Positions 15,339 to 31,958 of a DNA stretch of 64,000 nt are shown here, piece by piece. The stretch is from Bdellovibrionales bacterium. GTDB taxonomy: Bacteria > Pseudomonadota > Alphaproteobacteria > UBA9219. Location of the stretch: NCBI GenBank assembly GCA_041649025.1, contig JBAZNY010000002.1, positions 70,694 through 134,693 on the forward strand. Reading direction: 5' to 3'. The notes under the pieces were generated by a model. That model was not told the origin of the DNA and ran no database searches. It saw only the letters and a program-made list of their open reading frames with translations. Position 1 is the stretch's first letter, and every line of letters begins with the position of its first letter. The position numbers and the translations under genes were made by a program.

Positions 15339-15432
15339 GGAGACGTGGCCGAGTGGCTGAAGGCGGCGGTTTGCTAAACCGTTATACGTTTGAAAAGATG
15401 TATCGAGGGTTCGAATCCCTCCGTCTCCGCCA
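15339..15432 (+). tRNA. tRNA-Ser (anticodon GCU)
   Basis: Acceptor ggagacg/cgtctcc, anticodon loop ttGCTaa, a long variable arm, T-arm gaggg-ttcgaat-ccctc and an encoded CCA. Confidence 0.9.
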
Positions 15433-15478: not shown

Positions 15479-16028
15479 CTACATAGGTGACACCCGCGAG
15501 CCAAACGGGTTGTCCAGGGGTTGCAAGATCTTCTCCTCCAAGTCGATATAACCTGGATCATAATCCATAAAACTGACAAGCCAAGTGCCTTCTTCGACCT
15601 CTTTGAGGCCGACAGCTTGTCCTGCGAACACGGTCGATAAATTGATTTTTTTTGCGGTGTAAACAGATCCGACCACAATGGGTAACGTTCGCGCTCAGGT
15701 CGTGGAGAGGATACACAAGTTCTGGAAGACCAGTATACACGCGTGGGGAAGGTTTATAAATCTCGGCCGGATACTTCATGCCCAAGGCTTCATGCGGACG
15801 GTCGTTGTTGTATTCTTCGATGAAGTCATCGAACTTGGCTTGCTGTTGGAAGATATTCTCTCCGGGTGGACGCGTAGCTTCTTTCTTCAGCGTCAGATGC
15901 ATGCGTTCATGGCGACCATTCTGTTGAGGATGTGCGCAAATACTGCTCATCCCGCGCTCGTGAGCCAACACAAAGCAAATATTTTTGGGCCGATCTCGCA
16001 ATTTCAGTGTTTGCGGCAATAATCTCAT
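15479..16028 (-). pseudogene. IS481-like DDE transposase remnant (N-terminally truncated and frameshifted)
   Basis: Two overlapping frames carry HPQQNGRHERMH (P-Q-x-N-G-x-x-E-R motif), NNDRPHEALGMKYP and the C-terminal LAGQAVGLKEVEEGTWLVSF. There is no N-terminal HTH or catalytic DD region. Confidence 0.75.
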
Positions 16029-16771: not shown

Positions 16772-17245
16772 TTAATTCCACCCAATTTCACAGTATGGCT
16801 TCGGAGAAAGCGATCTGGCGATTCCTTCACGAACATAAGGAACCATGTTCTTGGGGAGCTTATTTACAGGGAAGAAGCGCAAGCCTCCGCATTTGTGAGG
16901 CTCCTTATTACAAATCTCGTTTTTCCATTTCTTGCAGACATAAAAGAGGTCGATTGACTCCCGATCAGGCGAAAAGCGATGAACAATACAAGAAAAGGCC
17001 ATGTCCTTCGGGCGAACAACAATGTCCGCTTCTTCAAAGGCTTCCCGAACCATCGCCGCCGTTGAGCTTTCTCCCCCATCAAGATGTCCCGCGATGACAC
17101 TATAGCTTCCGTCGCAGAAGCCTGTGTTCTGCCGAAGGAGAAGCAGAACCTCTTTTCCCTTAAGCAAAACCAAATGAACGGCAACAGGCATTTCAAAATG
17201 CTTAGACGGAGATTTCTTTTTGGCTTTGCCAACGATCTTACTCAT
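16772..17245 (-). CDS. Nudix hydrolase
   Basis: The Nudix box GHLDGGESSTAAMVREAFEEADI fits Gx5Ex7REuxEExxu. The start is taken at MSKIVGK, which makes an ATGA overlap with the upstream gene stop at 17242-17245. Confidence 0.8.
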   Translation of the reverse strand: MSKIVGKAKKKSPSKHFEMPVAVHLVLLKGKEVLLLLRQNTGFCDGSYSVIAGHLDGGESSTAAMVREAFEEADIVVRPKDMAFSCIVHRFSPDRESIDLFYVCKKWKNEICNKEPHKCGGLRFFPVNKLPKNMVPYVREGIARSLSPKPYCEIGWN

Positions 17246-18225
17246 GACTTCCCCCTGAACTTTTTCGCGAAGCTGTCCGTCGCTCTCACCGTCGCATCCA
17301 AAATGCCCGGATCGTTGTAAACGTGCGCAGCAACCTCCACCATGACCCATTGTGAAGAAGGCCAATTCTTGTGGAGTTCCCATGCCGTCGTCGCTGGGCA
17401 TACGGCATCGTAGCGTCCTTGAATAATTATGCCGGGAATGTTCTTCAGCTTTTTGGCCCCCTTAATAAGAGCACCTTCCTTCATAAATCCCGCGTTCAGG
17501 AAGTAATGGTTCTCAATAGCGGCGAAAGCTAACGCGAATTTATCTCTGGATTTATCGATAGTGTATTCCCCCTTCGGGATAAGGCACATCGCATCGCCTT
17601 CCCAGTCAGACCATGCCCGCGCAGCTTCAATTCTTGTTGCCCGCTTCTTTGAGGCCAATCTTTTCCGATAGGATTTCATAATGTCTTTTTGCTCGGCACG
17701 CGAAAGGATGCCGATAAAGCGATCCCAAGCTTCTGGAAACAGATAAGAAGCGCCCTCCTGATAAAACCACTTCAGCTCTTTCTTTCTGAGCATAAAGGTG
17801 CCTCTTAATATCAGACCGAGTACATTGCGCGGATACCGCTCAGCATAAGCCAAGGCAAGAGTGCTTCCCCATGAGCCTCCCAACATGATCCATCGATTAA
17901 TCCCCAAAAGATGGCGAAGCTTCTCAATATCGGCGACAAGATGCTGTGTTGTGTTTGCCTTCAAACATGTATGAGGGGTGCTGCGCCCACAGCCGCGTTG
18001 ATCAAATAGAATTATCCGATACTTCTTTGGATCAAATAAGCGCCGATGGTCTTTACCGCAGCCGCCGCCAGGCCCACCATGTATAAAGAGAGCTGGAATT
18101 CCGTTCGGATTGCCGCACGTCTCCCAATAAATCTTGTGTCCGTCCCCCACGGAAAGCATGCCGTGATCGTAGGGTTCGATGGAAGGAAAGAAGGAACGCA
18201 AAGATGGGGTTTTATGGGAATTCAT
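17242..18225 (-). CDS. prolyl-aminopeptidase-family (S33) alpha/beta hydrolase
   Basis: YWETCGNPNGIPALFIHGGPGGG, FDQRGCGRS and the nucleophile elbow GGSWGSTLALAYAERYP. The start is taken at MNSHKT, giving an ATGA overlap at 18222-18225. Confidence 0.8.
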   Translation of the reverse strand: MNSHKTPSLRSFFPSIEPYDHGMLSVGDGHKIYWETCGNPNGIPALFIHGGPGGGCGKDHRRLFDPKKYRIILFDQRGCGRSTPHTCLKANTTQHLVADIEKLRHLLGINRWIMLGGSWGSTLALAYAERYPRNVLGLILRGTFMLRKKELKWFYQEGASYLFPEAWDRFIGILSRAEQKDIMKSYRKRLASKKRATRIEAARAWSDWEGDAMCLIPKGEYTIDKSRDKFALAFAAIENHYFLNAGFMKEGALIKGAKKLKNIPGIIIQGRYDAVCPATTAWELHKNWPSSQWVMVEVAAHVYNDPGILDATVRATDSFAKKFRGKS

Positions 18226-18773
18226 GGCGATGGAGCATCCTTTTTTAAACCAATGTGAAAAGCGCGGGAGGGTTCTTTCATGAACTTTGAAACTTCTGGA
18301 TCGCTGTGACAACTATAACCGGCATCATATGTTTTTGCATGCCCCATGTTGCACCAGAAAGAAATCTGGCCTATCCGCATCATCGGATAAACCCTAAAGG
18401 GATGAGCTGACACGATTTCCAGCGTCCACTGGTGACAAGAGCCGGTGTGCCCAAGGTTTGCAGAAATCTGTAAAAACAAGCCGAGCCGCCCCAGAGAGCT
18501 GCGTCCGATTAAGGACATTGCGTATTCTTTGCTGCCCAGAGTCTCATGGGTATGTCCCAGATAGACCGTGTGAGGCTCTAGGACATAGCCCTCCTCAGGA
18601 ATTTTTATCTCTTTGAATCCATAAAGGCGTTCTTCGTCATATTCGGGAACAAGAAGCTTCGGCCCAAGCCTATAGTTATAGCTGTTGGGATTGATTTGAT
18701 CGTCGTTGAACGGAACAATCGTAATATCGCCCGCATCGACCATCTTCTTAATTTCTGTTCCCGTCAAAATCAT
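18222..18773 (-). CDS. dCTP deaminase/dUTPase-fold protein, divergent copy 1
   Basis: MILTGTEI, NPNSYNYRLG, GRSSLGRLGLFL and WTLEI. The Glu equivalent to E. coli Dcd E138 is retained, and DPGW is replaced by HTGS. Confidence 0.7.
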   Translation of the reverse strand: MILTGTEIKKMVDAGDITIVPFNDDQINPNSYNYRLGPKLLVPEYDEERLYGFKEIKIPEEGYVLEPHTVYLGHTHETLGSKEYAMSLIGRSSLGRLGLFLQISANLGHTGSCHQWTLEIVSAHPFRVYPMMRIGQISFWCNMGHAKTYDAGYSCHSDPEVSKFMKEPSRAFHIGLKKDAPSP

Positions 18774-18778
18774 ACTAG

Positions 18779-19870
18779 TTACGCAAAATCCACGGCAAGT
18801 TTTGTAAGTCTCTTATTAAGTATCGCCCTGTCAGGCCCCATTTTTTCTTTCAAATCTTGATAAGAGGAAACGTATGCCGCGATTAAGCCGCCAGCGCTTT
18901 TAGATGCCGTTCCGAAGCAGACCTTTTCCATCTGTTTTGATGCGCGCTCAAGATCGGCTGGCGTTGACATCGTGCGAGGCAATAGCTCGGCGATGCCCTG
19001 AAGATAACTGCGCAAAACCCGTCCGCGCCCGTCCGCAACGGGTTTTATTCCCGATCTCATAATGAAAGTGCTTGCAGCAACGGCATCCGCGATTTTCAAT
19101 TCGTCGTTGGTTTCAGTCGGCAGAAATTCTGCGATAGGAGCTGCATGAATGGGGGTCGGCAGCCCCGTCATTCTGCTGATTGCCGTCTCCACCCCGAAAG
19201 CCATTTCCACCCCAAGCTTTCGTTCACCAGCTTCGATGATGATAATATTTCCAATATCCCCGTACTCCTCGGAATATGGCCCTTTGATTGCAATGTTGCA
19301 GTTTCGCCCCGTTATGCCGTCAATGCCAAATTTATGCGTGTAGTAAACGGGTTCTTTCGTGTCGAACACCAAATACTGGTCGAGCCCAAGGTTTTTCCAG
19401 AAATCAACCAGATCAACGTCCGAGCTGGCGATATGAATCTTGATGGTGTTTGGGTTCAAACACAGCCGTTCCGTCAAAAACTGCCAGAAAAGTTTGGATA
19501 CTTTTTCGACATCATCATATTGCGACAGCGTCCCTGTGCTGAGAAACATGGATGACCAGTTGGGCACATAATTATTGTCTTGAATTCGCCTGGAGTTTTG
19601 CGTCCGCAAACAATCTTGAACCATAAACAGGCCGTTAGGAGGAATGCTCCCGCTAAGAAGAACCGGCTTCAAAGTGCTTATCGTTGAGCCGGTAAAAAGA
19701 ACAGAAGCATCATCCTTAGGAACTAATTTTCCGGCAGGAGCTTGTGAAAACCCATTCTCCAGAAAGAATGACTGAAAATGTGTCGAGAACTCGTTTCTCA
19801 ATCTGCGCAATATCGTTTTGTCGTCGTAATCCTCTATCGCGCGCGTTAGAAGGGAATTATAGTTTGTCAT
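18779..19870 (-). CDS. stand-alone AlaRS catalytic-core-like protein (class IIc aaRS paralogue)
   Basis: 363 aa, collinear by eye with the AlaRS N-terminal domain: FQSFFLENGF.. (vs [10 protein letters not shown]), LVPKDDASVLFTGSTI (vs [16 protein letters not shown]), QDCLRTQN (vs QKSVRAGG), and VEMAFGVETAISRMTG (vs [16 protein letters not shown] in the alaS of this window). No tRNA-recognition, editing or C-Ala domains. Confidence 0.6.
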   Translation of the reverse strand: MTNYNSLLTRAIEDYDDKTILRRLRNEFSTHFQSFFLENGFSQAPAGKLVPKDDASVLFTGSTISTLKPVLLSGSIPPNGLFMVQDCLRTQNSRRIQDNNYVPNWSSMFLSTGTLSQYDDVEKVSKLFWQFLTERLCLNPNTIKIHIASSDVDLVDFWKNLGLDQYLVFDTKEPVYYTHKFGIDGITGRNCNIAIKGPYSEEYGDIGNIIIIEAGERKLGVEMAFGVETAISRMTGLPTPIHAAPIAEFLPTETNDELKIADAVAASTFIMRSGIKPVADGRGRVLRSYLQGIAELLPRTMSTPADLERASKQMEKVCFGTASKSAGGLIAAYVSSYQDLKEKMGPDRAILNKRLTKLAVDFA

Positions 19871-19873
19871 AAT

Positions 19874-20419
19874 TTATGGCTCCGGCTTTTGTTGTGCACT
19901 CTTCTTAAAATCCCTAAATACTTCGGAAGACCTTGGCCCATTTGCCCCCTGATATTTGCCTTTGTAGAGAACGATCTCTCCCTTCGGAACCCAGAAGGAC
20001 ACTTGCCCGACGAGCATTCCTGGATAAAGCCGAATGGGCAGCGTTGCGTAGAGCTGAAACGACAGATTTCCGTGCATACCGAGATCGACGAGATCGGCTG
20101 TTACATGAACAAACAGCCCAAGCCGAGCGATGCTGGAACGCGCGTGAATAATTGGGACAAAGTAGTCGCTTCCAACTTTTTCCTGTGTATGTCCCACAAG
20201 AAAATCCCCCTTCTTCATCAAGATTCCCTTTTCATCTGCGATGATCTCTCGGAACTCCGGCGGATTTCGGGGATCGATAACTGGCGATGTGTACTGGATG
20301 AACTTATTGCCCAGCCGCAGATCATATGAATTTGTCGTCGCCCGTTCAGGATCGAAGGGGCAAATTTCAATCTTTCCCAAGTTCCACTGATTGATAATTT
20401 CTTTTCCGGTCAAAATCAT
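19874..20419 (-). CDS. dCTP deaminase-like protein, copy 2 (catalytic Glu replaced by Gln)
   Basis: MILTGKEI, TNSYDLRLGNKF, ARSSIARLGLFVHVTADLVDLG and RLYPGMLVGQVSF are close to canonical Dcd. The VLEF position reads SFQL. Confidence 0.7.
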   Translation of the reverse strand: MILTGKEIINQWNLGKIEICPFDPERATTNSYDLRLGNKFIQYTSPVIDPRNPPEFREIIADEKGILMKKGDFLVGHTQEKVGSDYFVPIIHARSSIARLGLFVHVTADLVDLGMHGNLSFQLYATLPIRLYPGMLVGQVSFWVPKGEIVLYKGKYQGANGPRSSEVFRDFKKSAQQKPEP

Positions 20420-20493
20420 CGTCGTCTCTATCGCTTGTTAAAATATACCCCGCAGTCGTTTGAATAACCGCAACTGCGGGGCCATTATTATAT

Positions 20494-21594
20494 TTATGGC
20501 GCAGGGCCTTCTTTTCTCTTCTTTTCCCATTGGAGCTTTTTCAGCCAAACGGGCTCATTCTGACGCGGCTTAAAGGAAACGCACAAAGGAACAAACTCAC
20601 CAAAATGATTCCCCTTGTTCTGATTGGTGCACGGAGTGTCCTTGGTCATGTCGTGGCCAAGAAGTTCATTCGTCGGCGTGTTGTTCCAATAGATTTTTTT
20701 GCTATCGTAAAAACCGATGCCGTAAGGAGTCCCAATCATGAGAGAGCAAAGACGGAGCATCCCATTCGGAAAAGCTAGAATACGATCGAACTGCTTGGCG
20801 GAGCAGTATCCATAATATTCCTTGTTTCTCTCAAATTCCTCCTTGACCGTAACGCACTGGGGCATCCGAACATCGATGCCCTTCTCTGTCTCTTTGTACT
20901 TTTGCACTTCTGCAAAGGCCTCCATGTATTCCTTGACGCTGGTATTGATATTATTTGACCAAACGTCGCGCGGAATTCCGCCCTTGAACAAATCATGCAT
21001 GTTGAGCGTCTTGACCCCAAGACCCTTCATAAATTCGATCATGTTGATAAGAGCGAGCTGTCCGTTTTCGGCTTGTGCAGTAAGCCCTTTGTGCACGCAG
21101 CTTGTTACGTGAACGTTGTAGCCCTTTTCGATGGCTTTCTTGATGTTTGAGGTACAGTTTTTGAAGCTACCTTTGCCACGGATGGCATCGTTCATTTCCT
21201 CCGTATAGCCGTCCAGGCTGAACGTAATTTCATCAAGCTCGCGGAAATAGGGATTGTCGAGCAAGGACGGATTGAACATCCCGTTCGTATCGATGCGAAC
21301 GTGCGAATACCCCATTTGCTTCGCTTCATGAATGAGTTCCGGCAGCTTCTTGTATAAAGTCGGCTCTCCTCCCATAAACGTCATCTTAATTGCGCCAAGT
21401 TCGCGCATATTTTTCATGAGATTTAACGCGTCGCCATATTCCATTTCCTTTTTCTGAAGCTGGAATGTGAGTTCAGGCTTGTACAAGCACTGCACGCACC
21501 TCAAATTGCAGGTGTCAGTGAGATACATAAAAACCTGTCCAATTTTATTGTTGAACGCCTGATAAAATTGTTCGTCAATTTCCATTTCGCTCAT
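20494..21594 (-). CDS. radical SAM enzyme with a Cys-rich C-terminal region
   Basis: CNLRCVQC (CX3CX2C) near the N-terminus, then MTFMGGEPTLY, VRIDTNGMF and ITFSLDG. There are additional C-terminal cysteines, possibly an auxiliary cluster domain. Confidence 0.75.
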   Translation of the reverse strand: MSEMEIDEQFYQAFNNKIGQVFMYLTDTCNLRCVQCLYKPELTFQLQKKEMEYGDALNLMKNMRELGAIKMTFMGGEPTLYKKLPELIHEAKQMGYSHVRIDTNGMFNPSLLDNPYFRELDEITFSLDGYTEEMNDAIRGKGSFKNCTSNIKKAIEKGYNVHVTSCVHKGLTAQAENGQLALINMIEFMKGLGVKTLNMHDLFKGGIPRDVWSNNINTSVKEYMEAFAEVQKYKETEKGIDVRMPQCVTVKEEFERNKEYYGYCSAKQFDRILAFPNGMLRLCSLMIGTPYGIGFYDSKKIYWNNTPTNELLGHDMTKDTPCTNQNKGNHFGEFVPLCVSFKPRQNEPVWLKKLQWEKKRKEGPAP

Positions 21595-21721
21595 ATTCGC
21601 CCCCTAAAAATTTATTTCCAAAATGAGAAGCGCTCATTTTGTGTTTGAAAATTAGTGGGTGCCGGTTTTACCCGCATCCCCCGTTCGGGGGTTTTTGATG
21701 TCTCTTCGATAAAAAGAGGTC

Positions 21722-23830
21722 TTAGTTTTTATCTAACGACGAAGTGTTAGATGACGAGTGCGATGCCGGCCTTGTCGGATCGCAGGAAGGCGCGCGTGCT
21801 TTGATTGCTTTCAGGTCGCCAACATCATCGAAGAAACGTTGAAGCCAAATAAGCATCCCTATTCTATTTTCTCTGATGCTTACGTTGTCATCGTTGATGC
21901 GAACGTTTTCAAAAAACTCCGTAACAGTTGTCTCGGTCTCGCTTAAGCGTTGTAGCTTTGCTCCGTAGTCCAGCACAGGAAATTGCAGCGTCATCTTCGC
22001 CAACATCCCGCACATGCGCACATCATAATCCGAAGCCAAGAGCTTGCTGCTTGTGGCATACTCTTTGGTAGCCCAGTCCTTCGGCAATATCTTGCGAACG
22101 CGCGTAGCTACCGCCAATAATTTTGCCCCTTCCGGAGTTTTCATAAACTCCCGAATGGCAGTGCCGCGCTCAAACAAACGGCTTACGTTGTTGGTCTTGT
22201 CGTTATTTAATACCGATGAAATCACATCTTCGGGCAACCCGCGTTCCAGGAACGTTGACCTGATCCGATCCCGCATAAAATCGTCAATCCCTTCAGGAAA
22301 CTTTGCACTGTAAAGTTCCGAAGAAAGAGCAATACCTTCGGAAAGATCATAATCAATATTGTTTTCCAAAAGAATTCTGACCATCCCCAATGCCGTCCGC
22401 CTTAATGAAAATGGGTCGCGGCTGGAGCTAGGTATTTCTCCGATGCTGAAAAAACCGGTCAATGTGTCGATCTTATCTGCCAGCGCTATGGTTGCCGCCG
22501 TCTTCTCTTTCGGGCAAGCATCGCTTGGGCCGAGAGGCGCATAATGGCTTCTTATTGCTTCGGCAACGATTGGGGTTTCCCCCTGCTGCAAAGCACATCT
22601 ATATCCGACAATCCCTTGCAATTCTGGAAATTCATAAACAAGCGATGTGGTGAGATCGGCTTTTGATAAATTGGCCGCATGCTGAACTAAAGAAACGTCA
22701 GCCCCTAGCTTCCGCGCAATTGCCTTTGACAAAGCGGCAACGCGCTGCGTTTTGTCATACATGCTGCCCAATTTGTTATGGAACTTGAGCGTTTGAAGAT
22801 TCTGGACTCTATCGATAAGCGGAACGCTGACATCCTTTGACCAGAAGAAAAGTGCGTCCGACAAACGCGCAGAAATTACTTTCTCATTGCCGACAACGAC
22901 CGTTTTTCCTCCATCCTCTGTTACAGTTCCTGCGGCAAATATAAAGTTGGAAGAAAGGCCTCCATTCTCCTTCTTTAACGAGAAATACTTTTGGTTTGCC
23001 TTCATTGAGGTTGTGATAACCTCCGGAGGAACGTTCAAGAATCTTTCTTCAAACTGCCCAAGCAAAACAATGGGCCATTCTGTCAATCCGGCAACTTCCT
23101 CCAGAAGATCATTATCTTCATTAAGATGCAGTCCCTGTGCTTCTGCTATCCTTTGCGCATCGTTATAAATAATCGATTTGCGTTCGTTTCTATCTATTAC
23201 AACATGTCTCAATGCCAATTCATTTTTGTATTGTGCAAAATCTGTAATACAAAACGACTCTGGATTTAAGAACCTGTGTCCCACAGATTGATTTGTGTAT
23301 TCGAGATTAGTGCCGTTTCCGAGGTCAAAAGCTCCTTCTACGGCCTTGCCGTCAAAAACAACCGAGATGCTTTTCAGAGGACGCGCCCAACGGAACGTAG
23401 TTGATCCCCAACGCATGGATTTCTTCCATGACATCTCCCTTATCGACTTATCGATAACGACTGCCAAAACCTGCTTTGTTTCTCGTTCCTGGACTACCTT
23501 GTTCAAAACATAACATTCCCCTTTTGAAGTGTTCTTTGTTGACAGGTTTGTCTTTTGAGACCCCGTTGCTTTCAAAAAAGCGGAGATAATTTTCTCATTG
23601 CTATTTGTTTTTGGCCCTAATCTTTCAATATTTCTCGCTGGCAAGACGGTTGGAATTCCTTCGATTGCCACAACAAGCCGCCGTGGAGTCGATCCCCGAT
23701 GTAACTCTCCCATGGGGACGCCCGCATCCGAAAGTTCTTTACACAAAATGCTGGCAAATTGTTCTTCCGCTGCTGCTTGCACGTTTGCAGGAAGTTCTTC
23801 CGATAAAAGCTCAACGAGTAATTCCGACAT
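21722..23830 (-). CDS. glyS: glycine--tRNA ligase beta subunit
   Basis: MSELLVELLSEELPAN at the N-terminus, about 700 aa, directly downstream of glyQ (18 bp gap). The start is taken at the internal Met of the ORF. Confidence 0.9.
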   Translation of the reverse strand: MSELLVELLSEELPANVQAAAEEQFASILCKELSDAGVPMGELHRGSTPRRLVVAIEGIPTVLPARNIERLGPKTNSNEKIISAFLKATGSQKTNLSTKNTSKGECYVLNKVVQERETKQVLAVVIDKSIREMSWKKSMRWGSTTFRWARPLKSISVVFDGKAVEGAFDLGNGTNLEYTNQSVGHRFLNPESFCITDFAQYKNELALRHVVIDRNERKSIIYNDAQRIAEAQGLHLNEDNDLLEEVAGLTEWPIVLLGQFEERFLNVPPEVITTSMKANQKYFSLKKENGGLSSNFIFAAGTVTEDGGKTVVVGNEKVISARLSDALFFWSKDVSVPLIDRVQNLQTLKFHNKLGSMYDKTQRVAALSKAIARKLGADVSLVQHAANLSKADLTTSLVYEFPELQGIVGYRCALQQGETPIVAEAIRSHYAPLGPSDACPKEKTAATIALADKIDTLTGFFSIGEIPSSSRDPFSLRRTALGMVRILLENNIDYDLSEGIALSSELYSAKFPEGIDDFMRDRIRSTFLERGLPEDVISSVLNNDKTNNVSRLFERGTAIREFMKTPEGAKLLAVATRVRKILPKDWATKEYATSSKLLASDYDVRMCGMLAKMTLQFPVLDYGAKLQRLSETETTVTEFFENVRINDDNVSIRENRIGMLIWLQRFFDDVGDLKAIKARAPSCDPTRPASHSSSNTSSLDKN

Positions 23831-23848
23831 AATTGTTCTCAACCAAAG

Positions 23849-24715
23849 TTATGGATTTGCTTTAAGAAGCGTCTCGCAACATGCCTTCGCCAAATTTCTC
23901 ACGCGCCCTATATATGCTTGTCTTTCCTGTGGACTGATGACGCCGCGCGCATCAAGCGAATTAAACGTGTTTGCGGCCAAAACACATTGCTCATAGGCCG
24001 GAATTGGAAGTCTCTTCTTTAACAATTCCTCACATGTTTCTTCAAAATCATTGAAGTGCAAGAACAGTTTTTGAGGATTTGAGTGTTCAAAATTATAGGC
24101 CGACATCTGTTTCTCGTTTTCGAGATAAACGTCGCCATATGTCAGGCCTGAATTGTTGTAAGGAAGATCGTAAACGTTGTTCACGTCTAGTACATACATA
24201 GCAAGACGCTCTAACCCATAGGTAAGTTCAAGCGTCACGGGGGAACACTCCAAACCGCCCATTTGCTGAAAATATGTGAACTGCGAGATTTCCATCCCGT
24301 CACACCAGACTTCCCAACCAAGGCCGCTGGCTCCTAAGGTTGGGCTTTCCCAGTCATCCTCAACAAATCGGATATCGTGCAACGCTGGCGTTATCCCGAT
24401 CTCCTTGATGCTGTCCAAATACAATTCCTGGGAATTAGCCGGAGATGGCTTTATCACGACCTGGAATTGATGGTGCATTTGCAGCCGGTTGGGATTCTCT
24501 CCGTATCTGCCGTCTGTCGGACGCCTTGCCTGCTGCACATACGCAGCTTTCCATGGCTTCCCTCCGAGCACCCTAAATACCGTTGCGGGATGATATGTGC
24601 CCGCGCCCATTTGCATATCGTAGGGCTGAAGAAGTGCGCACCCCTTCGATCCCCAGTATTTTTGCAAACCAAGAATAATGTCTTGGTAGCAGCGCAGCTT
24701 TTTGGAATCCTGCAT
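23849..24715 (-). CDS. glyQ: glycine--tRNA ligase alpha subunit
   Basis: [60 protein letters not shown], and [22 protein letters not shown]. Confidence 0.93.
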
Positions 24716-24807
24716 TGCAATTCGTCCTAAAGTTGTTTTTTAATGAATGTGTCTGAATTGATCTGAGGCCACATCCCCCTTTTGGGGGTTTCTGTGCCAA
24801 AAACGCT

Positions 24808-26835
24808 TCAAAGCGCGCTAGTTAATGACAGCAGAGGAAACACCGGTTTTTTCAAGCGAGCCCTTAGTTCATTGAAGTGTTTTCCAGCAAGATCAAACCC
24901 CCCTTTGCTCAGCATCGCGGAACTAATAAAATAGCCATCCCCTTTAACATTCTGCTCATCAACTGCTTTAGCGATGTCATCATGCGTAAGGAGACCAGCA
25001 ACACAGATATTTCCGCCAAAGTGTTGGTTAGACGCGGCAATTATGCGTAAATTACGAACTTTTTCATCAGGACGAAGCAGCTCCGTTGCTGCGTCTAAAA
25101 AAGGCTTCATGATAGAGCTTGTGACAAGAACGGGTTGTTGCAATTCATACTGCCGTTGGTGCGCAGCAATACGCCGGAAAATTGAGAAATCCACATCGTC
25201 ATTCATGAGGATTCCCCATGTTCCGACCTTCTTATCAACCAGCGTTCGCGCCCGCTTCAGTGACTTATAGGCAGAAAGCTCCACATCTCTTTGCATTCCC
25301 CTCGGGTCTCGCACAGCGACGACCATCTTGTTGGCTTGAAGATCATTTAATAGCTGAAGTGCTTCGGTTCGTGACCGTGGAGTTTTCCCATTAACTTCGA
25401 TGATTGTTGATCCCGCTTCGATGCCAGCTTGATCGGCGTTTGATCCTTCAATGACATCTTCTATCGTTGGCGTAAGCCCAGTTCGATTTAGCAATCCTAC
25501 CGTTACAATTATGGCTGTTTTGACAGATGGGCGTAGAGCGGTGACAAATGAATCAATCCGTGCCAATTCTTCTGGTGACAAAAGCAGTTTTGGATTGTGA
25601 TGAAGCGTGCCCGCCGGAAGAGCAACTCGTATATATGACGTCGGCTCATACTTGTCCGCATAACGAATTGTATGCTCGATGTCCTCTAATGGTATCCAAC
25701 TCGTGGCTGCAACAAGAGAAACATCAAACTGAATTCCCAAATCGTGCATTAGCGGTAATGATTGAATAGCAACTTCATGTTGTTCAGGTCTGCCCCCAGG
25801 CATAAGTATTTTTCTGTAGGCAGGGTCCGCGCTGTTCAGCGAGACTTGGAACAGGACTTGCTGGCGAAGCTGATCGTCTTCTGCAATTGCCTTAAGAAGC
25901 TTCTGTTTTAGGTTTCCGCCATGTGTCAGGATGGGGACTTGCGCCTTAGGATCAGCGGCGCATATAAGCTTCAGAACCTTTAGAAATTCAGGATGTTCCG
26001 TTGGCTCCCAATCCATCAGCGCATAACGTAACGGCGGATGCCCAAAACGAGTATTTGCGTCGTAGGAATTTAGAGCGTCCTTAATGTCATCAAGCGATCT
26101 CGCCCATCCGCGCGGGTATCTGACCGTCGAAAAACCTCGATCAACATAACAGAACCGGCATCCCTGATTGCAGTTATTCCATACGAAAGGAATTGCTGCA
26201 TTTTGAGCCGACCCAATAGGAACTTGAAGGGCTTGGGCATCAACGACTTTTGCCACACCTGGTTCAGAAAAATCAAATGTATTCAAAAGCCACTTCCGTA
26301 CCACAGCCTCAAGCGTATCGTTATTATGAACACTCGGTAATGGAATTGCCGGAGAAGGAAATGTTGCCCCGCCAAGAATATGTTGTACCGCCGCTACGCG
26401 CCCATTTAGCACACCCCCTTCATTGAGAAGTTCCACATCGTGCAATAGGGCAAAAGAAATATCTCCCCAATTGATTTGGGCTTTACCTGGATTAGATGCA
26501 GCTCCTGCTTCGAAAGAGCCTTTTCCTAAACGCATATAGGCATCGCATAACAATACTATGGGAGATTCAAACCCAAAAAGTTGACCCTGAACGCTTTGCA
26601 TTTCTTGTTGAGGGATAGGTTTGCTGAGATCGTTAGTACTATTTGAAACTCGAATACGATCAGGAACTAGGATATTGCCGTGAGCATCAAAAAACTGCGA
26701 AAACAGTATGACTGCTTGTGCCAAACCAAGAAAACGAGATTCTTTCGACCCAGCATCGTCAAGAAGACCATATTTCTGAATTTCGATAGCCTTTATCGTT
26801 GAAGAAAATTGTTTTGGCAGCGCGTTATTTACCAT
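24808..26835 (-). CDS. radical SAM / PDZ / DUF512-like multidomain protein with an unassigned roughly 230 aa N-terminal domain
   Basis: CNQGCRFC (CX3CX2C) at about residue 232. A PDZ-like segment IEDVIEGSNADQAGIEAGSTIIEVNGK. The C-terminal FGGNICVAGLLTHDDI resembles DUF512. Confidence 0.6.
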   Translation of the reverse strand: MVNNALPKQFSSTIKAIEIQKYGLLDDAGSKESRFLGLAQAVILFSQFFDAHGNILVPDRIRVSNSTNDLSKPIPQQEMQSVQGQLFGFESPIVLLCDAYMRLGKGSFEAGAASNPGKAQINWGDISFALLHDVELLNEGGVLNGRVAAVQHILGGATFPSPAIPLPSVHNNDTLEAVVRKWLLNTFDFSEPGVAKVVDAQALQVPIGSAQNAAIPFVWNNCNQGCRFCYVDRGFSTVRYPRGWARSLDDIKDALNSYDANTRFGHPPLRYALMDWEPTEHPEFLKVLKLICAADPKAQVPILTHGGNLKQKLLKAIAEDDQLRQQVLFQVSLNSADPAYRKILMPGGRPEQHEVAIQSLPLMHDLGIQFDVSLVAATSWIPLEDIEHTIRYADKYEPTSYIRVALPAGTLHHNPKLLLSPEELARIDSFVTALRPSVKTAIIVTVGLLNRTGLTPTIEDVIEGSNADQAGIEAGSTIIEVNGKTPRSRTEALQLLNDLQANKMVVAVRDPRGMQRDVELSAYKSLKRARTLVDKKVGTWGILMNDDVDFSIFRRIAAHQRQYELQQPVLVTSSIMKPFLDAATELLRPDEKVRNLRIIAASNQHFGGNICVAGLLTHDDIAKAVDEQNVKGDGYFISSAMLSKGGFDLAGKHFNELRARLKKPVFPLLSLTSAL

Positions 26836-26901: not shown

Positions 26902-27339
26902 TTATAACCCCCTTTGGGGGGTATAAGTTTCAACAAAACAGCGCGTCCCCTCTATTGCATAAGGGGAGATCAAGCCAAGCGTACATGCAATCGAAACGGC
27001 GTTTGCCTTGTTAACCGCGTTAAGCTTGTTCGATATTTTCCGGTGATAATCTTTGACTGTCTCTTCAGATAGACAAACAATGTCCGATATTTCTTTCCGT
27101 GTTTTTCCCCTTGCCGTCCAAGTCAGGATTTCTGCTTCTCTCGCTGTTAGAGGTTCGATGAGGAAGGACTCTGATGAATTCGGTGTGGCATTAGGATAAG
27201 CCAAATATAGCGTGGCCAGATGGGTGCGAACACGAACGCTGGAGCCGTTTTTGCGCAGCGCTGTATGACCAGAGCGGATTTCCTCTACTGGAAACCTTCC
27301 CCCGGACACGTTGCTCAAATTTTCAAAAAGCTCGTCCAT
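26902..27339 (-). CDS. LuxR/FixJ-type HTH transcriptional regulator
   Basis: The C-terminal LTAREAEILTWTARGKTRKEISDIVCLSEETVKDYHRKISNKLNAVNKANAV is a GerE/LuxR HTH. The N-terminal roughly 70 aa is unassigned. Confidence 0.8.
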   Translation of the reverse strand: MDELFENLSNVSGGRFPVEEIRSGHTALRKNGSSVRVRTHLATLYLAYPNATPNSSESFLIEPLTAREAEILTWTARGKTRKEISDIVCLSEETVKDYHRKISNKLNAVNKANAVSIACTLGLISPYAIEGTRCFVETYTPQRGL

Positions 27340-30191: not shown

Positions 30192-30857
30192 ATGCCAACA
30201 GGAAAACAAATACGAGCTGCACGCGTTCTGGCTGGGTGGGACATAAAAGACCTCGCCCCACGCGCGGGACTGAGTGTAACCGCCGTTCAGAACATTGAAA
30301 CGGGCGTAGTTCCCAAAACATCTACAATTGAAAGAATCGTCAGAGCATTTTCTGGTGCAGGAATTGAGTTCACTGACAATGAAGGTGTGCGTCGTCGCCC
30401 TCAAGGTGTGGAGATATTTGAAGGCCAAGAGCGTTTCGAGGAATTTACAAATTTTGTTTATGAGCAAATCAAAGAGCACGGTGGACATATTTGTTTGAGC
30501 GTGACTGACGAGCGATTGTTTTCAAAGTATCGCACGAATACCATAGACTACTATGAAAGAATGAAGGATTTGTTCAATCGAGGAGTGATTAAATCCTTTC
30601 GCATATTGGCTAACAAGAGCAACTTTGCAACGAAGTATACTTATAGCACCTACAAGTGGCAGCCTGAAACAACAATGGCACCAACGGCTTTTTATACGTT
30701 TGCCGATTACCTTGCACTTATATCCTTTGAACATAGCAATCCCCCATACGTCCTAGTTATTCAATCAGCGGCTTTGGCTGATTCCTATCGTCGCGCTTTT
30801 GAGATCGCTTGGGCGGCGGGGAAAGAACCTCCGAAAACAAAGGGGGGTAAATCTTGA
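30192..30857 (+). CDS. XRE-family HTH regulator with an unassigned C-terminal domain
   Basis: MPTGKQIRAARVLAGWDIKDLAPRAGLSVTAVQNIETG...GIEFTDNEGVRRR. The stop overlaps the start of the downstream GNAT gene. Confidence 0.7.
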   Translation: MPTGKQIRAARVLAGWDIKDLAPRAGLSVTAVQNIETGVVPKTSTIERIVRAFSGAGIEFTDNEGVRRRPQGVEIFEGQERFEEFTNFVYEQIKEHGGHICLSVTDERLFSKYRTNTIDYYERMKDLFNRGVIKSFRILANKSNFATKYTYSTYKWQPETTMAPTAFYTFADYLALISFEHSNPPYVLVIQSAALADSYRRAFEIAWAAGKEPPKTKGGKS

Positions 30858-31531
30858 CCTGTGTCCAAATCCAATCAGTAGGCGCAGCCTCTTTGCCACA
30901 ACAATTTGAGCTTAGGCCTTTAACCGGGAATGACACTTCGGCTTATTTTGAGCGGCGTGATCATATTTTGAAAATCGGCGAAGGTCATTTTTTCAGCGAT
31001 TCATACGAGCGAGAAGATAAATTAATAACTGAACAGAAACGACGCGATTGGTGCACAGAAAAGCACGATCATTGTATTTTGGGCGCATTTGCCGACCGGA
31101 ATCTTGTTGGTTTTGTTATGATTACGCAATACGGCCCGCCAGCGGACAAAACCGTTGAGTGGGAGGCCGCTTGGGTTGATCCTCGCTATCGCGGCACCGG
31201 ACTTACAAAAGCACTTTATGAAGAAGTGGAAAAGTGGACCGTCTCTGAGGGATACCGCTTTGTTAAATCGTTTATCCGAGAAGATAACAAACGTTGGTTA
31301 GACATTCGCCGCAGGACGGGGTTTGTCGAAATCGGCACCAAATATGTTTCTCACTGGGCGGATAACACAGACGGAAACATGGTTATCCTCATACGTGATC
31401 TTTCTGTTCCAAAACCTCAGCAACAGAAATCGCTCCATTTTCTTGAAGACACCATTTCTTCTTTGGAGGGTCTTCCTGCTGTTTCGCACGGCATAGTAAG
31501 AGCGCGAAAGGTGCAGGCGTTAGGTCTATAG
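30854..31531 (+). CDS. GNAT-family N-acetyltransferase
   Basis: LVGFVMITQY...AAWVDPRYRGTGLTKALYEEVEKW is an acetyl-CoA-binding (R/Q-x-x-G-x-G/A type) motif. The TTG start overlaps the upstream stop (TTGA). Confidence 0.65.
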   Translation: MTCVQIQSVGAASLPQQFELRPLTGNDTSAYFERRDHILKIGEGHFFSDSYEREDKLITEQKRRDWCTEKHDHCILGAFADRNLVGFVMITQYGPPADKTVEWEAAWVDPRYRGTGLTKALYEEVEKWTVSEGYRFVKSFIREDNKRWLDIRRRTGFVEIGTKYVSHWADNTDGNMVILIRDLSVPKPQQQKSLHFLEDTISSLEGLPAVSHGIVRARKVQALGL

Positions 31532-31743
31532 CGGATCACATATTATTTTTCAGAAGACTGAAGAAGAAATTTGTTGTAGTCTGTTCGTAACTCAGGGGGA
31601 GAGAAAAAAATCGAGACCTCAAGTTTTAGGGATTTGAATTCTCGGTTTTCAGGAAATCCCTTTTGGGGATATAAGTGGGGGCATAAGAGGAAATTATGAT
31701 CGGTGATTGTTTAGCAATATCAATCTAATACAAGCCGCGTCCT

Positions 31744-31762
31744 AATCCCTCCGTCTCCGCCA
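31744..31762 (+). repeat. direct repeat of the tRNA-Ser 3' end (att-like, exact 19/19)
   Basis: aatccctccgtctccgcca is identical to 15414-15432 inside tRNA-Ser. Confidence 0.9.
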
Positions 31763-31801: not shown

Positions 31802-31939
31802 GGAGAAAGCGGGATTCGAACCCGGCAAAAGGGTTCGATGGCAAGCCATTCAAATAGCGTTCGCGGAAGCTCCGCGAACGCACAAAAACAAAAATTTATG
31901 GCGCAGACAGGGCGAGCGGCGCGACAGCGCCGAGAAGCC

Positions 31940-31958
31940 AATCCCTCCGTCTTCGCCA
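31940..31958 (+). repeat. second direct repeat of the tRNA-Ser 3' end (18/19)
   Basis: aatccctccgtcttcgcca differs at one position from 15414-15432. Confidence 0.8.

Follow-up and report, generated by a model that had tools for sequence, protein, structure and literature searches.

Among the closest described counterparts of the locus considered here are the self-resistance aminoacyl-tRNA synthetases (aaRSs), divergent enzymes that are encoded in or near gene clusters and carry changes near their ligand sites, as exemplified by mupirocin IleRS2, indolmycin TrpRS, albomycin SerRS, the IleRS SbzA and the ArgRS of the tiarin cluster (PMC9437257; PMC12945691; bioRxiv 10.64898/2025.12.02.691738). 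Extra aaRS copies in gene clusters are proven signposts for natural products that target these enzymes and for the corresponding resistance mechanisms, and the bacterial two-subunit glycyl-tRNA synthetase (GlyRS) is itself a drug target. A review of duplicated aaRSs contains no case of a bacterial alpha2beta2 GlyRS, and under GlyRS includes only yeast GlyRS2 and carrier-protein ligases (PMC9437257). The present report concerns the genes for such an enzyme, glyQ and glyS, which lie in a genomic island within a 64-kb stretch of DNA referred to here as the window (positions 70,694 to 134,693 of contig JBAZNY010000002.1, assembly GCA_041649025.1). The reading favored below, to which we give about an even chance, is that this glyQS pair encodes an active, horizontally acquired and very probably additional GlyRS that is dedicated to its cluster, as a product-insensitive target, as a supplier of Gly-tRNA, or as both.

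Tailoring and detoxification of aminoacylated nucleosides and nucleotides provide further points of comparison. In the biosynthesis of ascamycin, AcmF, a truncated AlaRS-like protein, uses Ala-tRNA, also accepts Gly-tRNA, and aminoacylates a nucleoside; it is accompanied by AcmD, a full AlaRS copy that supplies the aminoacyl-tRNA, and by AcmE, an alpha/beta-hydrolase (PMC12945691). According to Sudo (1996), as cited in PMC4322347, a proline iminopeptidase dealanylates ascamycin. Enzymes of the MccF type detoxify aminoacyl-nucleotides, which the murein LD-carboxypeptidase LdcA does not (PMC8323819).

Integrity and divergence of the island-borne GlyRS

The two subunit genes are located as follows.

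23849-24715, minus strand: glyQ, GlyRS alpha (catalytic) subunit of variant type, 288 aa (NF006827 457.4 bits, cut-off 369; TIGR00388 430 bits, cut-off 361; Pfam tRNA-synt_2e 1.9e-134)
21722-23830, minus strand: glyS, GlyRS beta subunit, 702 aa (TIGR00211 655 bits, cut-off 300, model positions 1-684; Pfam tRNA_synt_2f 3e-168)

Both genes are complete and are separated by a gap of 18 nt, with ATG 23830 as the likely start of glyS and an upstream in-frame TTG at 23842 as a less likely one (open reading frame 21722-23842). Their coordinates and placement verify what the initial annotation had described, a complete pair between two radical-SAM genes in a segment bracketed by repeats derived from tRNA-Ser. 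An ENA assembly (123-kb contig) shows this arrangement too, and the operon itself also occurs in an independent Logan assembly.

By every sequence criterion applied, glyQS appears to encode a working GlyRS and to be no decaying pseudogene. Both subunits score above the NCBIfam equivalog cut-offs. A consensus of 108 GlyQ sequences, taken from E. coli, from the genomes of alphaproteobacteria and from various metagenome contigs, served for comparison. In the window GlyQ neither the residues of the glycine pocket (T39, Q82, Q84, W121 and E162, in E. coli numbering) nor the ATP/Mg residues (R64, R76, R169, D67, E134 and E141) depart from it; R63, T146 and T164 are likewise kept, the steric-filter threonines are unchanged, and GlyS retains R326, the B3 arginine that completes the ATP site. 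The roles of these residues have been established previously, for the ATP/Mg residues with tests by mutagenesis (PMC4938167; PMC8464048). In its glycine pocket, ATP/Mg residues and beta-subunit arginine, as well as in its adjacent alpha-then-beta genes, its full set of class II motifs and its equivalog-level scores, the enzyme is like canonical (alpha-beta)2 GlyRS, represented by that of E. coli (PDB 7EIV) and by the Aquifex alpha subunit with Gly-SA. It is unlike the canonical enzyme in having Y80H at an adenylate ribose contact, no DALR_1 match and no ppdK after glyS, and in being island-borne and of foreign composition. The DALR_1 match is missing from GlyS even at E<=10, although the region is still present in length; for comparison, the score is 42.7 bits for the E. 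coli protein and 29-35 bits for two GlyS from alphaproteobacteria.

GlyQ is altered at 11 of the 123 columns that are at least 95% conserved, as compared with a median of 1 and a maximum of 10 for the other sequences, and GlyS at 21 of 119 conserved columns (median 3 for the others). The motifs YVQQARRP and LQMHHQFQ, flagged in the initial annotation as departures from the usual YVQPSRRP and LQHYYQFQ, are both real and unusual among the 108 other GlyQ: P61 (conserved in 100%), H79 (98%), Y80 (98%) and Y81 (99%) are Q, M, H and H, respectively, in the window. The hydroxyl of Aquifex Tyr74, which corresponds to Y80, contacts the ribose O4'/O5' of a glycyl-adenylate analog, and also Trp115 (PMC4938167). 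The most diverged parts of GlyS are the tRNA-binding B1/B2 domains and the C-terminal anticodon-binding domain.

Close relatives of this enzyme are few. A HMMER search of 1.84 billion cluster representatives, exhaustive at the level of 50%-identity clusters only, returned 11,576 GlyS relatives, and just two of these exceed 42% identity, both at ~46%. They come from two 4-kb, low-coverage contigs, designated L176 (ENA ERZ15185938 NODE_9450) and L177. Among the matches listed, the best for GlyQ is 70% identical (GTDB scan) and the best for GlyS 37% (JGI metagenome scan). GlyQ of L176 is 77% identical overall to that of the window and has the motifs YVQQsRRP and LQMHHQFQ. At 12 columns with a conservation of 90% or more the two proteins carry the same derived residue (E34Q, L46F, P61Q, H79M, Y80H, Y81H, W129S, Q175L, L242I, H253N, L257S and V266P), and the partial GlyQ of L177 also has H253N and L257S. 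Because the same derived states have been kept across 23% overall divergence, purifying selection seems to act on the changed enzyme. If, as we infer, derived positions fall within remodelled helices, these helices could insulate the variant GlyQ from a co-resident canonical GlyQ.

In these features the window enzyme parallels the self-resistance aaRSs, with substitutions at ligand-contacting or invariant residues of the active-site region and with its catalytic residues kept, and on this basis it may be regarded as a candidate for resistance. In contrast to the situation for those enzymes, the compound, its target and a second copy are all putative here. Yeast GlyRS2 (PMC9437257) is likewise a second GlyRS that exists alongside a housekeeping one, but it belongs to the eukaryotic alpha2 type, stands outside any gene cluster and has an active-site region that is not remodelled.

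Neither subunit follows the phylogeny of the host. In neighbor-joining trees of GlyQ, of GlyS and of their concatenation the window sequence forms the longest terminal branch and falls outside all 45 sampled alphaproteobacteria; the window, L176 and L177 sequences are monophyletic in 100 of 100 bootstraps, and 30 alphaproteobacterial GlyS are monophyletic without this trio in 99 of 100. The window AlaS is 59-65% identical to alphaproteobacterial and 50-52% to gammaproteobacterial homologs, and Obg is 59-65% and 48-52% identical, respectively, while the island GlyQ is 60-64% identical to the former group and 59.5-60.6% to the latter. Measured against Paramagnetospirillum, the window AlaS (65.5%) is 10 points closer than that of E. 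coli (55.3%), the window GlyQ (66.2%) is further away than that of E. coli (69.8%), and the GlyS values are 38.2% for the window and 38.0% for E. coli. Alphaproteobacterial GlyQ and GlyS average 74% and 53% identity among themselves, and the window proteins average 65% and 38% to them. A comparison of the two phylogenies, which the initial annotation had proposed, thus finds no tracking of the host, the window enzyme branching instead with two orphan sequences outside the sampled alphaproteobacteria. The source metagenome-assembled genome (MAG) is labelled 'Bdellovibrionales bacterium' at NCBI, yet the AlaS and Obg flanking the island are clearly alphaproteobacterial.

The arrangement glyQ-glyS-ppdK is found in 66 of 80 alphaproteobacterial glyQ loci, and no ppdK is present in the 64-kb window. 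Synteny of alaS with glyQS was considered and set aside as coincidence: the two lie 6 kb apart in Paramagnetospirillum (L039), with no other shared gene and in no other locus. An origin from phages or plasmids was likewise rejected, as the matches in IMG/VR, INPHARED and PLSDB are ordinary host genes or chromids; neither the variant glyQS nor the AlaRS-like cassette described below was found in IMG/VR, among INPHARED phages or among PLSDB plasmids.

Nucleotide composition sets glyQS apart from the core genome in the same manner. For glyS the GC content is 0.460 and that at third codon positions (GC3) 0.472, which is z = -4.4 against the core and -0.2 against the island; for glyQ the values are 0.480 and 0.526, or z = -3.0 and +0.7. 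The core set comprises 20 genes outside the island (GC3 0.643+-0.039) and the island set 15 island genes other than glyQS (GC3 0.485+-0.060). Relative synonymous codon usage (RSCU) of glyS correlates at 0.27 with the core and at 0.66 with the island, as compared with 0.93-0.96 with the core for alaS, smc and rne. The lower-GC, island-like character that the initial annotation had judged by eye agrees with the computed GC3 and RSCU, and on GC, GC3 and codon usage together glyQS is clearly island-like and not core-like.

The island and its mosaic operon

The boundaries of the island and the genes at its edges are as follows.

15339-15432, plus strand: tRNA-Ser(GCU), whose 3' end is the left attachment (att) repeat of the island (ARAGORN; Rfam tRNA 60.6 bits)
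15558-16028, minus strand: truncated rve_3 transposase/integrase-core fragment at the left edge of the island (Pfam rve_3 6.2e-13)
30854-31531, plus strand: GNAT acetyltransferase in the island, for which an immunity-type role is possible (Pfam Acetyltransf_1 2.3e-14)
31739-31762, plus strand: direct repeat of the tRNA-Ser 3' end, right boundary copy 1 (22/24 identical)
31935-31958, plus strand: direct repeat of the tRNA-Ser 3' end, right boundary copy 2 (19/24 identical)

A 19-nt core of the tRNA-Ser 3' end is identical in copy 1 (31739-31762). No intact integrase is left in the island, which retains the transposase fragment only, and there is no tRNA-Gly gene within it. The presence of two tandem att-like repeats at the right end suggests repeated integration events.

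These properties of composition and boundary bear on the possibility that glyQS is the sole housekeeping GlyRS of its host, having arrived by xenologous replacement, with the native copy lost, the gene serving translation, and its position in an operon a historical accident. Such a history is supported by the completeness of the enzyme, in which all catalytic residues are kept, by the established displacement of aaRS genes through horizontal transfer (reviewed in PMC9437257), and by the lack of a second copy in the window; in addition, the integrase has been lost and only a transposase fragment remains, so that the island is no longer freshly mobile. We nevertheless consider replacement unlikely. 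The composition is unameliorated, with GC3 3-4 standard deviations under the core, the att repeats are still 19-22/24 identical, an essential gene would sit in a LuxR-preceded accessory operon between hairpins, and the 12 shared derived changes at near-invariant positions mark a changed, not merely transplanted, enzyme. Because a canonical glyQS-ppdK locus is not in the window, one may well exist elsewhere in the genome, which also counts against replacement. The old and fixed island that the initial annotation had envisaged for a sole copy is disfavored by the unameliorated composition and the well-preserved att repeats.

Within the island glyQS belongs to a series of co-oriented genes, in the order LuxR-type regulator, DUF512 radical-SAM gene, glyQ, glyS, radical-SAM gene, DCD1, AlaRS-like gene, DCD2, alpha/beta-hydrolase gene and NUDIX gene. 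The members other than glyQS, and the hairpins between them, are listed here in the direction of transcription.

26902-27339, minus strand: LuxR/GerE-type regulator upstream of the operon (Pfam GerE 1.3e-15; 52% identity to the GerE protein of locus L083)
26907-26922, no strand assigned: junction hairpin between the LuxR-type gene and the DUF512 gene (pattern search)
24808-26835, minus strand: radical-SAM + PDZ + DUF512 protein, 675 aa, a probable cobalamin-dependent radical-SAM enzyme, co-inserted with glyQS (Pfam)
24775-24789, no strand assigned: junction hairpin between the DUF512 radical-SAM gene and glyQ (pattern search)
21678-21692, no strand assigned: junction hairpin ACCCCC-N4-GGGGG between glyS and the cassette radical-SAM gene (pattern search)
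20494-21594, minus strand: radical-SAM enzyme, 366 aa, first cassette gene, with generic MoaA/viperin-like similarity only (Pfam Radical_SAM 4.6e-19; 69-83% identity to L083/L085)
19874-20419, minus strand: DCD1, dCTP deaminase-like protein 1 (TIGR02274 108 bits, cut-off 92.8)
18779-19870, minus strand: truncated AlaRS-like protein, catalytic and tRNA-recognition region only (Pfam tRNA-synt_2c 2.4e-12)
18222-18773, minus strand: DCD2, dCTP-deaminase/dUTPase-fold protein 2 (Pfam DCD 4.5e-32; under the TIGR02274 cut-off)
17242-18225, minus strand: alpha/beta-hydrolase of proline-iminopeptidase type, a candidate de-aminoacylating enzyme (NCBIfam TIGR01249 prolyl aminopeptidase 397 bits, cut-off 260; 72-75% identity to L083/L085)
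16772-17245, minus strand: NUDIX hydrolase, last cassette gene (Pfam NUDIX 1.7e-12; 66-68% identity to the L083/L085 cassette NUDIX)

The operon is a mosaic of a conserved cassette and an insert. The cassette consists of the six genes at 16772-21594 (radical-SAM, DCD, AlaRS-like, DCD, prolyl-aminopeptidase-type hydrolase and NUDIX), and the same six genes recur at L083 (8243-13122) and L085 (8280-13123), with 55-87% protein identity; neither glyQS nor a DUF512 gene is present at L083 or L085/L086. A GerE/LuxR-type gene precedes the cassette at L083, an integrase and a relaxase are found at L085/L086, and both L083 and L085/L086 lie among restriction-modification and related genes. The protein most diverged in the glyQS-bearing version of the cassette is the AlaRS-like one (61% to L083, 55% to L085); the AlaRS-like proteins of L083 and L085 are 74% identical to each other, and the other five cassette proteins show 66-87% identity. 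The DUF512 protein, whose name-giving domain binds cobalamin (PMC11659888), has 15 homologs, and elsewhere it occurs not with glyQS but with a large radical-SAM protein and with PIG-L, NUDIX or both. Because the cassette and the DUF512 modules both recur elsewhere without glyQS, the DUF512 gene and glyQS can be recognized as an insert between the regulator and the cassette. No description of the six-gene cassette was found in the literature searched for this gene combination.

The junctions of the insert carry a signature of their own. The ACCCCC-N4-GGGGG sequence, a perfect hairpin or palindrome, occurs at exactly the three insert junctions and nowhere else in the 64 kb, as compared with 0.03 matches expected, and it is absent from all other fetched loci except L001 and L002, which are the window's own sequence. 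Its usual form is AAACCCCC...GGGGGAT, terminator-like on the plus strand and without a U-tract on the coding strand. These hairpins could stabilize or process mRNA, serve as operator sites for the LuxR-type regulator, or be scars of cassette insertion. The intergenic region between glyS and the radical-SAM gene (21595-21721, minus strand) folds at z = -3.96 relative to shuffled controls, into three hairpins. These could act as an attenuator or terminator within the operon, setting glyQS apart from the cassette; one of them, AAAAUGAG-N5-CUCAUUUU, precedes a U-rich stretch. In an Rfam scan of 14-34 kb the only match was the tRNA, with no T-box or riboswitch upstream of glyQ, and a promoter scan gave no signal above chance.

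Given that cassette and DUF512 modules occur elsewhere without glyQS, it is conceivable that glyQS is a passenger, captured by chance with the DUF512 gene and retained as a generic backup, that is, as a stress-, toxin- or phage-resilient spare unrelated to the chemistry of the cassette. The defense-island and prophage settings of related cassettes, with restriction-modification systems, Vsr and terminase and portal genes nearby, are compatible with such a role, and a stress-inducible GlyRS2 exists in yeast (PMC9437257). What makes this very improbable is that glyQS lies inside the operon, in the same orientation, between regulator and cassette, and that the peptidase genes discussed below tie the variant clade to the AlaRS-like cassette in independent loci; nor does any PADLOC model match glyQS. 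PADLOC detected the cassette only at the level of generic radical-SAM similarity. The identification of the cassette radical-SAM enzyme as a prokaryotic viperin (pVip) was rejected, with NF038283 at 57 bits against a cut-off of 180 and the PADLOC pVip matches reflecting the same generic similarity.

Several neighboring arrangements were noted in the course of these comparisons. At L089/L090 (10001-18351; alphaproteobacterial MAG JAFTSJ010000006.1) a trio of DUF512 radical-SAM, radical-SAM and NUDIX genes lies 1.5 kb from a resolvase gene, beyond which come the gene for an AspRS of the archaeal, non-discriminating type, 432 aa long and scoring above the NF003483 cut-off, and that for an MFS transporter; an accessory aaRS close to a DUF512 module may have its second example here. 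A general link between DUF512 and aaRSs was rejected, as among five DUF512 loci only the window, and possibly L089, has an aaRS. L086 (6004-6741) encodes a cyclodipeptide synthase (Pfam CDPS 36 bits, cut-off 27), a type of enzyme that uses aminoacyl-tRNA, divergently oriented beside the AlaRS-like cassette; a cyclodipeptide synthase was dismissed as a component of the window, which holds no homolog of it.

Proposed aminoacyl-nucleotide chemistry and candidate self-resistance

The neighbors of glyQS would fit aminoacyl-nucleotide chemistry, and together they form a candidate inhibitor pathway. Central to this view is the AlaRS-like protein, a rare one with only 43 homologs in 5.8 billion proteins. 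At 363 aa it aligns to AlaRS up to approximately residue 400, covering the catalytic and much of the tRNA-recognition region; the motif-2 Arg is kept, Trp170 of the amino-acid pocket is absent, the motif-3 sequence GLER is GVET, and D235 is replaced by E. These departures agree with what has been published for AcmF (PMC12945691). Because it is without Trp170 and the motif-3 Arg, this protein is a candidate aminoacyl-tRNA-dependent transferase.

The layout parallels that of the ascamycin module acmD/acmE/acmF of Streptomyces sp. 80H647, with a full aaRS, a truncated AlaRS-like protein without the activation residues, an alpha/beta-hydrolase and nucleoside-directed chemistry in both. There are also clear differences. 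The aaRS of the window is GlyQS and not AlaRS, genes for sulfamate or halogenation chemistry are missing, the partners are dCTP-deaminase-fold, radical-SAM and NUDIX proteins, and an alphaproteobacterial genomic island stands against an actinomycete cluster; moreover, the likening to AcmF is by its published description only.

The DCD-DCD-AlaRS-like core also occurs in other settings. At L088 (8076-15542; Ewingella americana JBTNCH010000003.1) it is accompanied by a methyltransferase, a metallophosphoesterase, an MFS exporter and two ATP-grasp ligases, and at L179 (8935-16042) by a methyltransferase, a metallophosphoesterase and an ABC exporter. With methyltransferase, metallophosphoesterase and exporters alongside, the core at these two loci looks like part of a small-molecule biosynthetic cluster. 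At L178 (8931-12151) the core has the terminase and portal genes of a prophage for neighbors, and the gene directly after it encodes an S66 peptidase of MccF-like type.

It is this peptidase that connects the cassette to the variant glyQS. On the L176 contig, the second gene ahead of the variant glyQ codes for an S66 peptidase, of which the C-terminal half is present; it shares 57% identity (2e-61) with the peptidase whose gene comes directly after the AlaRS-like gene at L178. The best PDB matches of the two are the MccF-like BA_5613/Lmo1638 and MccF itself (~1e-37 for the full-length protein), while matches to the murein LD-carboxypeptidases are far weaker (1e-14 to 1e-16). On the strength of these matches, three independent loci connect, in pairs, the variant glyQS, the AlaRS-like/DCD core and an aminoacyl-nucleotide immunity peptidase. 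On L176 (1-2473) the MccF-like peptidase gene comes first, then an Amidohydro_2 gene whose end is overlapped by glyQ, and this order suggests a small resistance-type operon of peptidase, amidohydrolase, glyQ and glyS. Microcin C immunity, in which MccF is the S66 peptidase and MccE a GNAT protein, is paralleled by the MccF-like peptidases at L176 and L178 and by the GNAT in the window island. Unlike the microcin C system, the locus has no MccB-type adenylating enzyme and no precursor peptide, and the hydrolase of the window is of the proline-iminopeptidase type, not S66.

A scheme consistent with this context can be proposed. The deaminase-fold and radical-SAM enzymes would build a modified pyrimidine nucleotide, onto which the AlaRS-like protein would move an aminoacyl group from aminoacyl-tRNA in the manner of AcmF; the hydrolase and the NUDIX protein would remove or degrade the aminoacyl-nucleotide, for processing or for immunity. 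The variant GlyRS would supply Gly-tRNA(Gly) and stay active despite a glycyl-adenylate-like product, a tolerance we propose because its adenylate-binding region is remodelled (Y80H and neighbors). The outcome would be self-resistance by target replacement, comparable with AcmD, SbzA, IleRS2 and the aaRS copies in tiarin clusters. As glyQS lies in an acquired operon seemingly built for the production or handling of an aminoacyl-nucleotide toxin, it is most likely an extra copy and not the ordinary housekeeping one.

A more restricted role would be that of pure dedicated supply, in which an extra GlyRS raises the amount of Gly-tRNA available to the AlaRS-like transferase or the B12 radical-SAM enzyme, or directs it to them, perhaps on a non-standard tRNA, with no resistance involved. 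AcmD, which supplies aminoacyl-tRNA to the glycyl-tRNA-accepting AcmF (PMC12945691), is a precedent for it, and the concentration of divergence in the tRNA-binding parts of GlyS (B1/B2 and the anticodon-binding domain, with no DALR_1 match) and in the AlaRS-like protein of the glyQS-bearing cassette is in keeping with such specialization. We regard supply without resistance as quite unlikely all the same, for it explains neither the replacement of near-invariant residues around the adenylate site nor the MccF-like immunity peptidase that accompanies the sister glyQS, and these two points are the reason that resistance is preferred; furthermore, the island has no tRNA-Gly gene, and cassettes elsewhere manage with the aminoacyl-tRNA of the host.

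A number of observations weigh against a dedicated, additional GlyRS. There is no second GlyRS gene within the 64-kb window, and no natural GlyRS inhibitor was found in the literature searched. An aaRS is not required for the cassette, since L083, L085, L088, L178 and L179 have it without any aaRS. Among the derived residues of GlyQ, a position in the pocket is known from the literature only for Y80. The relatives L176 and L177 are 4-kb contigs, and their glyQS may therefore be housekeeping genes of an unsampled low-GC lineage that acted as donor. The reference sets were those among the matches listed in the GTDB and JGI scans, the trees are neighbor-joining trees from corrected p-distances, and every step of the scheme, like its product, is a prediction. 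The accessory role that the initial annotation had raised, as self-resistance or dedicated supply, is borne out in part: the island-like codon usage, the phylogeny that departs from the host, and the acmD/E/F-like and MccF context speak for it, while the second glyQS with which it had been coupled is not in the window.

A bolder extension of the favored reading is that this would be the first natural system directed at GlyRS, in which a tRNA-dependent pathway makes a glycyl-pyrimidine-nucleotide antimetabolite and the 'QQxRRP/MHHQFQ' GlyQS, insensitive to this product, both feeds the pathway and shields the producing cell; the remodelling of its C-terminal helices and of its tRNA-binding domains would insulate it from the GlyQ and GlyS of the host. 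In this complete form the proposal is speculative, and we think it doubtful, if worth stating.

Implications for GlyRS and its accessory copies

Accessory aaRSs encoded in clusters are known as a class, and the GlyQS subfamily and the AlaRS-like cassette reported here are undescribed additions to that picture. Should glyQS instead turn out to be the sole copy in its genome, it would plainly show how a xenologue carried on an island can take the place of an essential synthetase. If a cluster-dedicated GlyRS is the correct reading, the variant clade would represent a natural set of substitutions that may make GlyRS tolerant of inhibitors, and the locus would point to an undescribed aminoacyl-nucleotide pathway with a rare family of AlaRS-like transferases at its center, a family whose members are found in islands, in prophages and in clusters that contain exporters. 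The combination of variant glyQS, MccF-like peptidase and DCD-AlaRS-like core would then provide a handle for target-directed genome mining.

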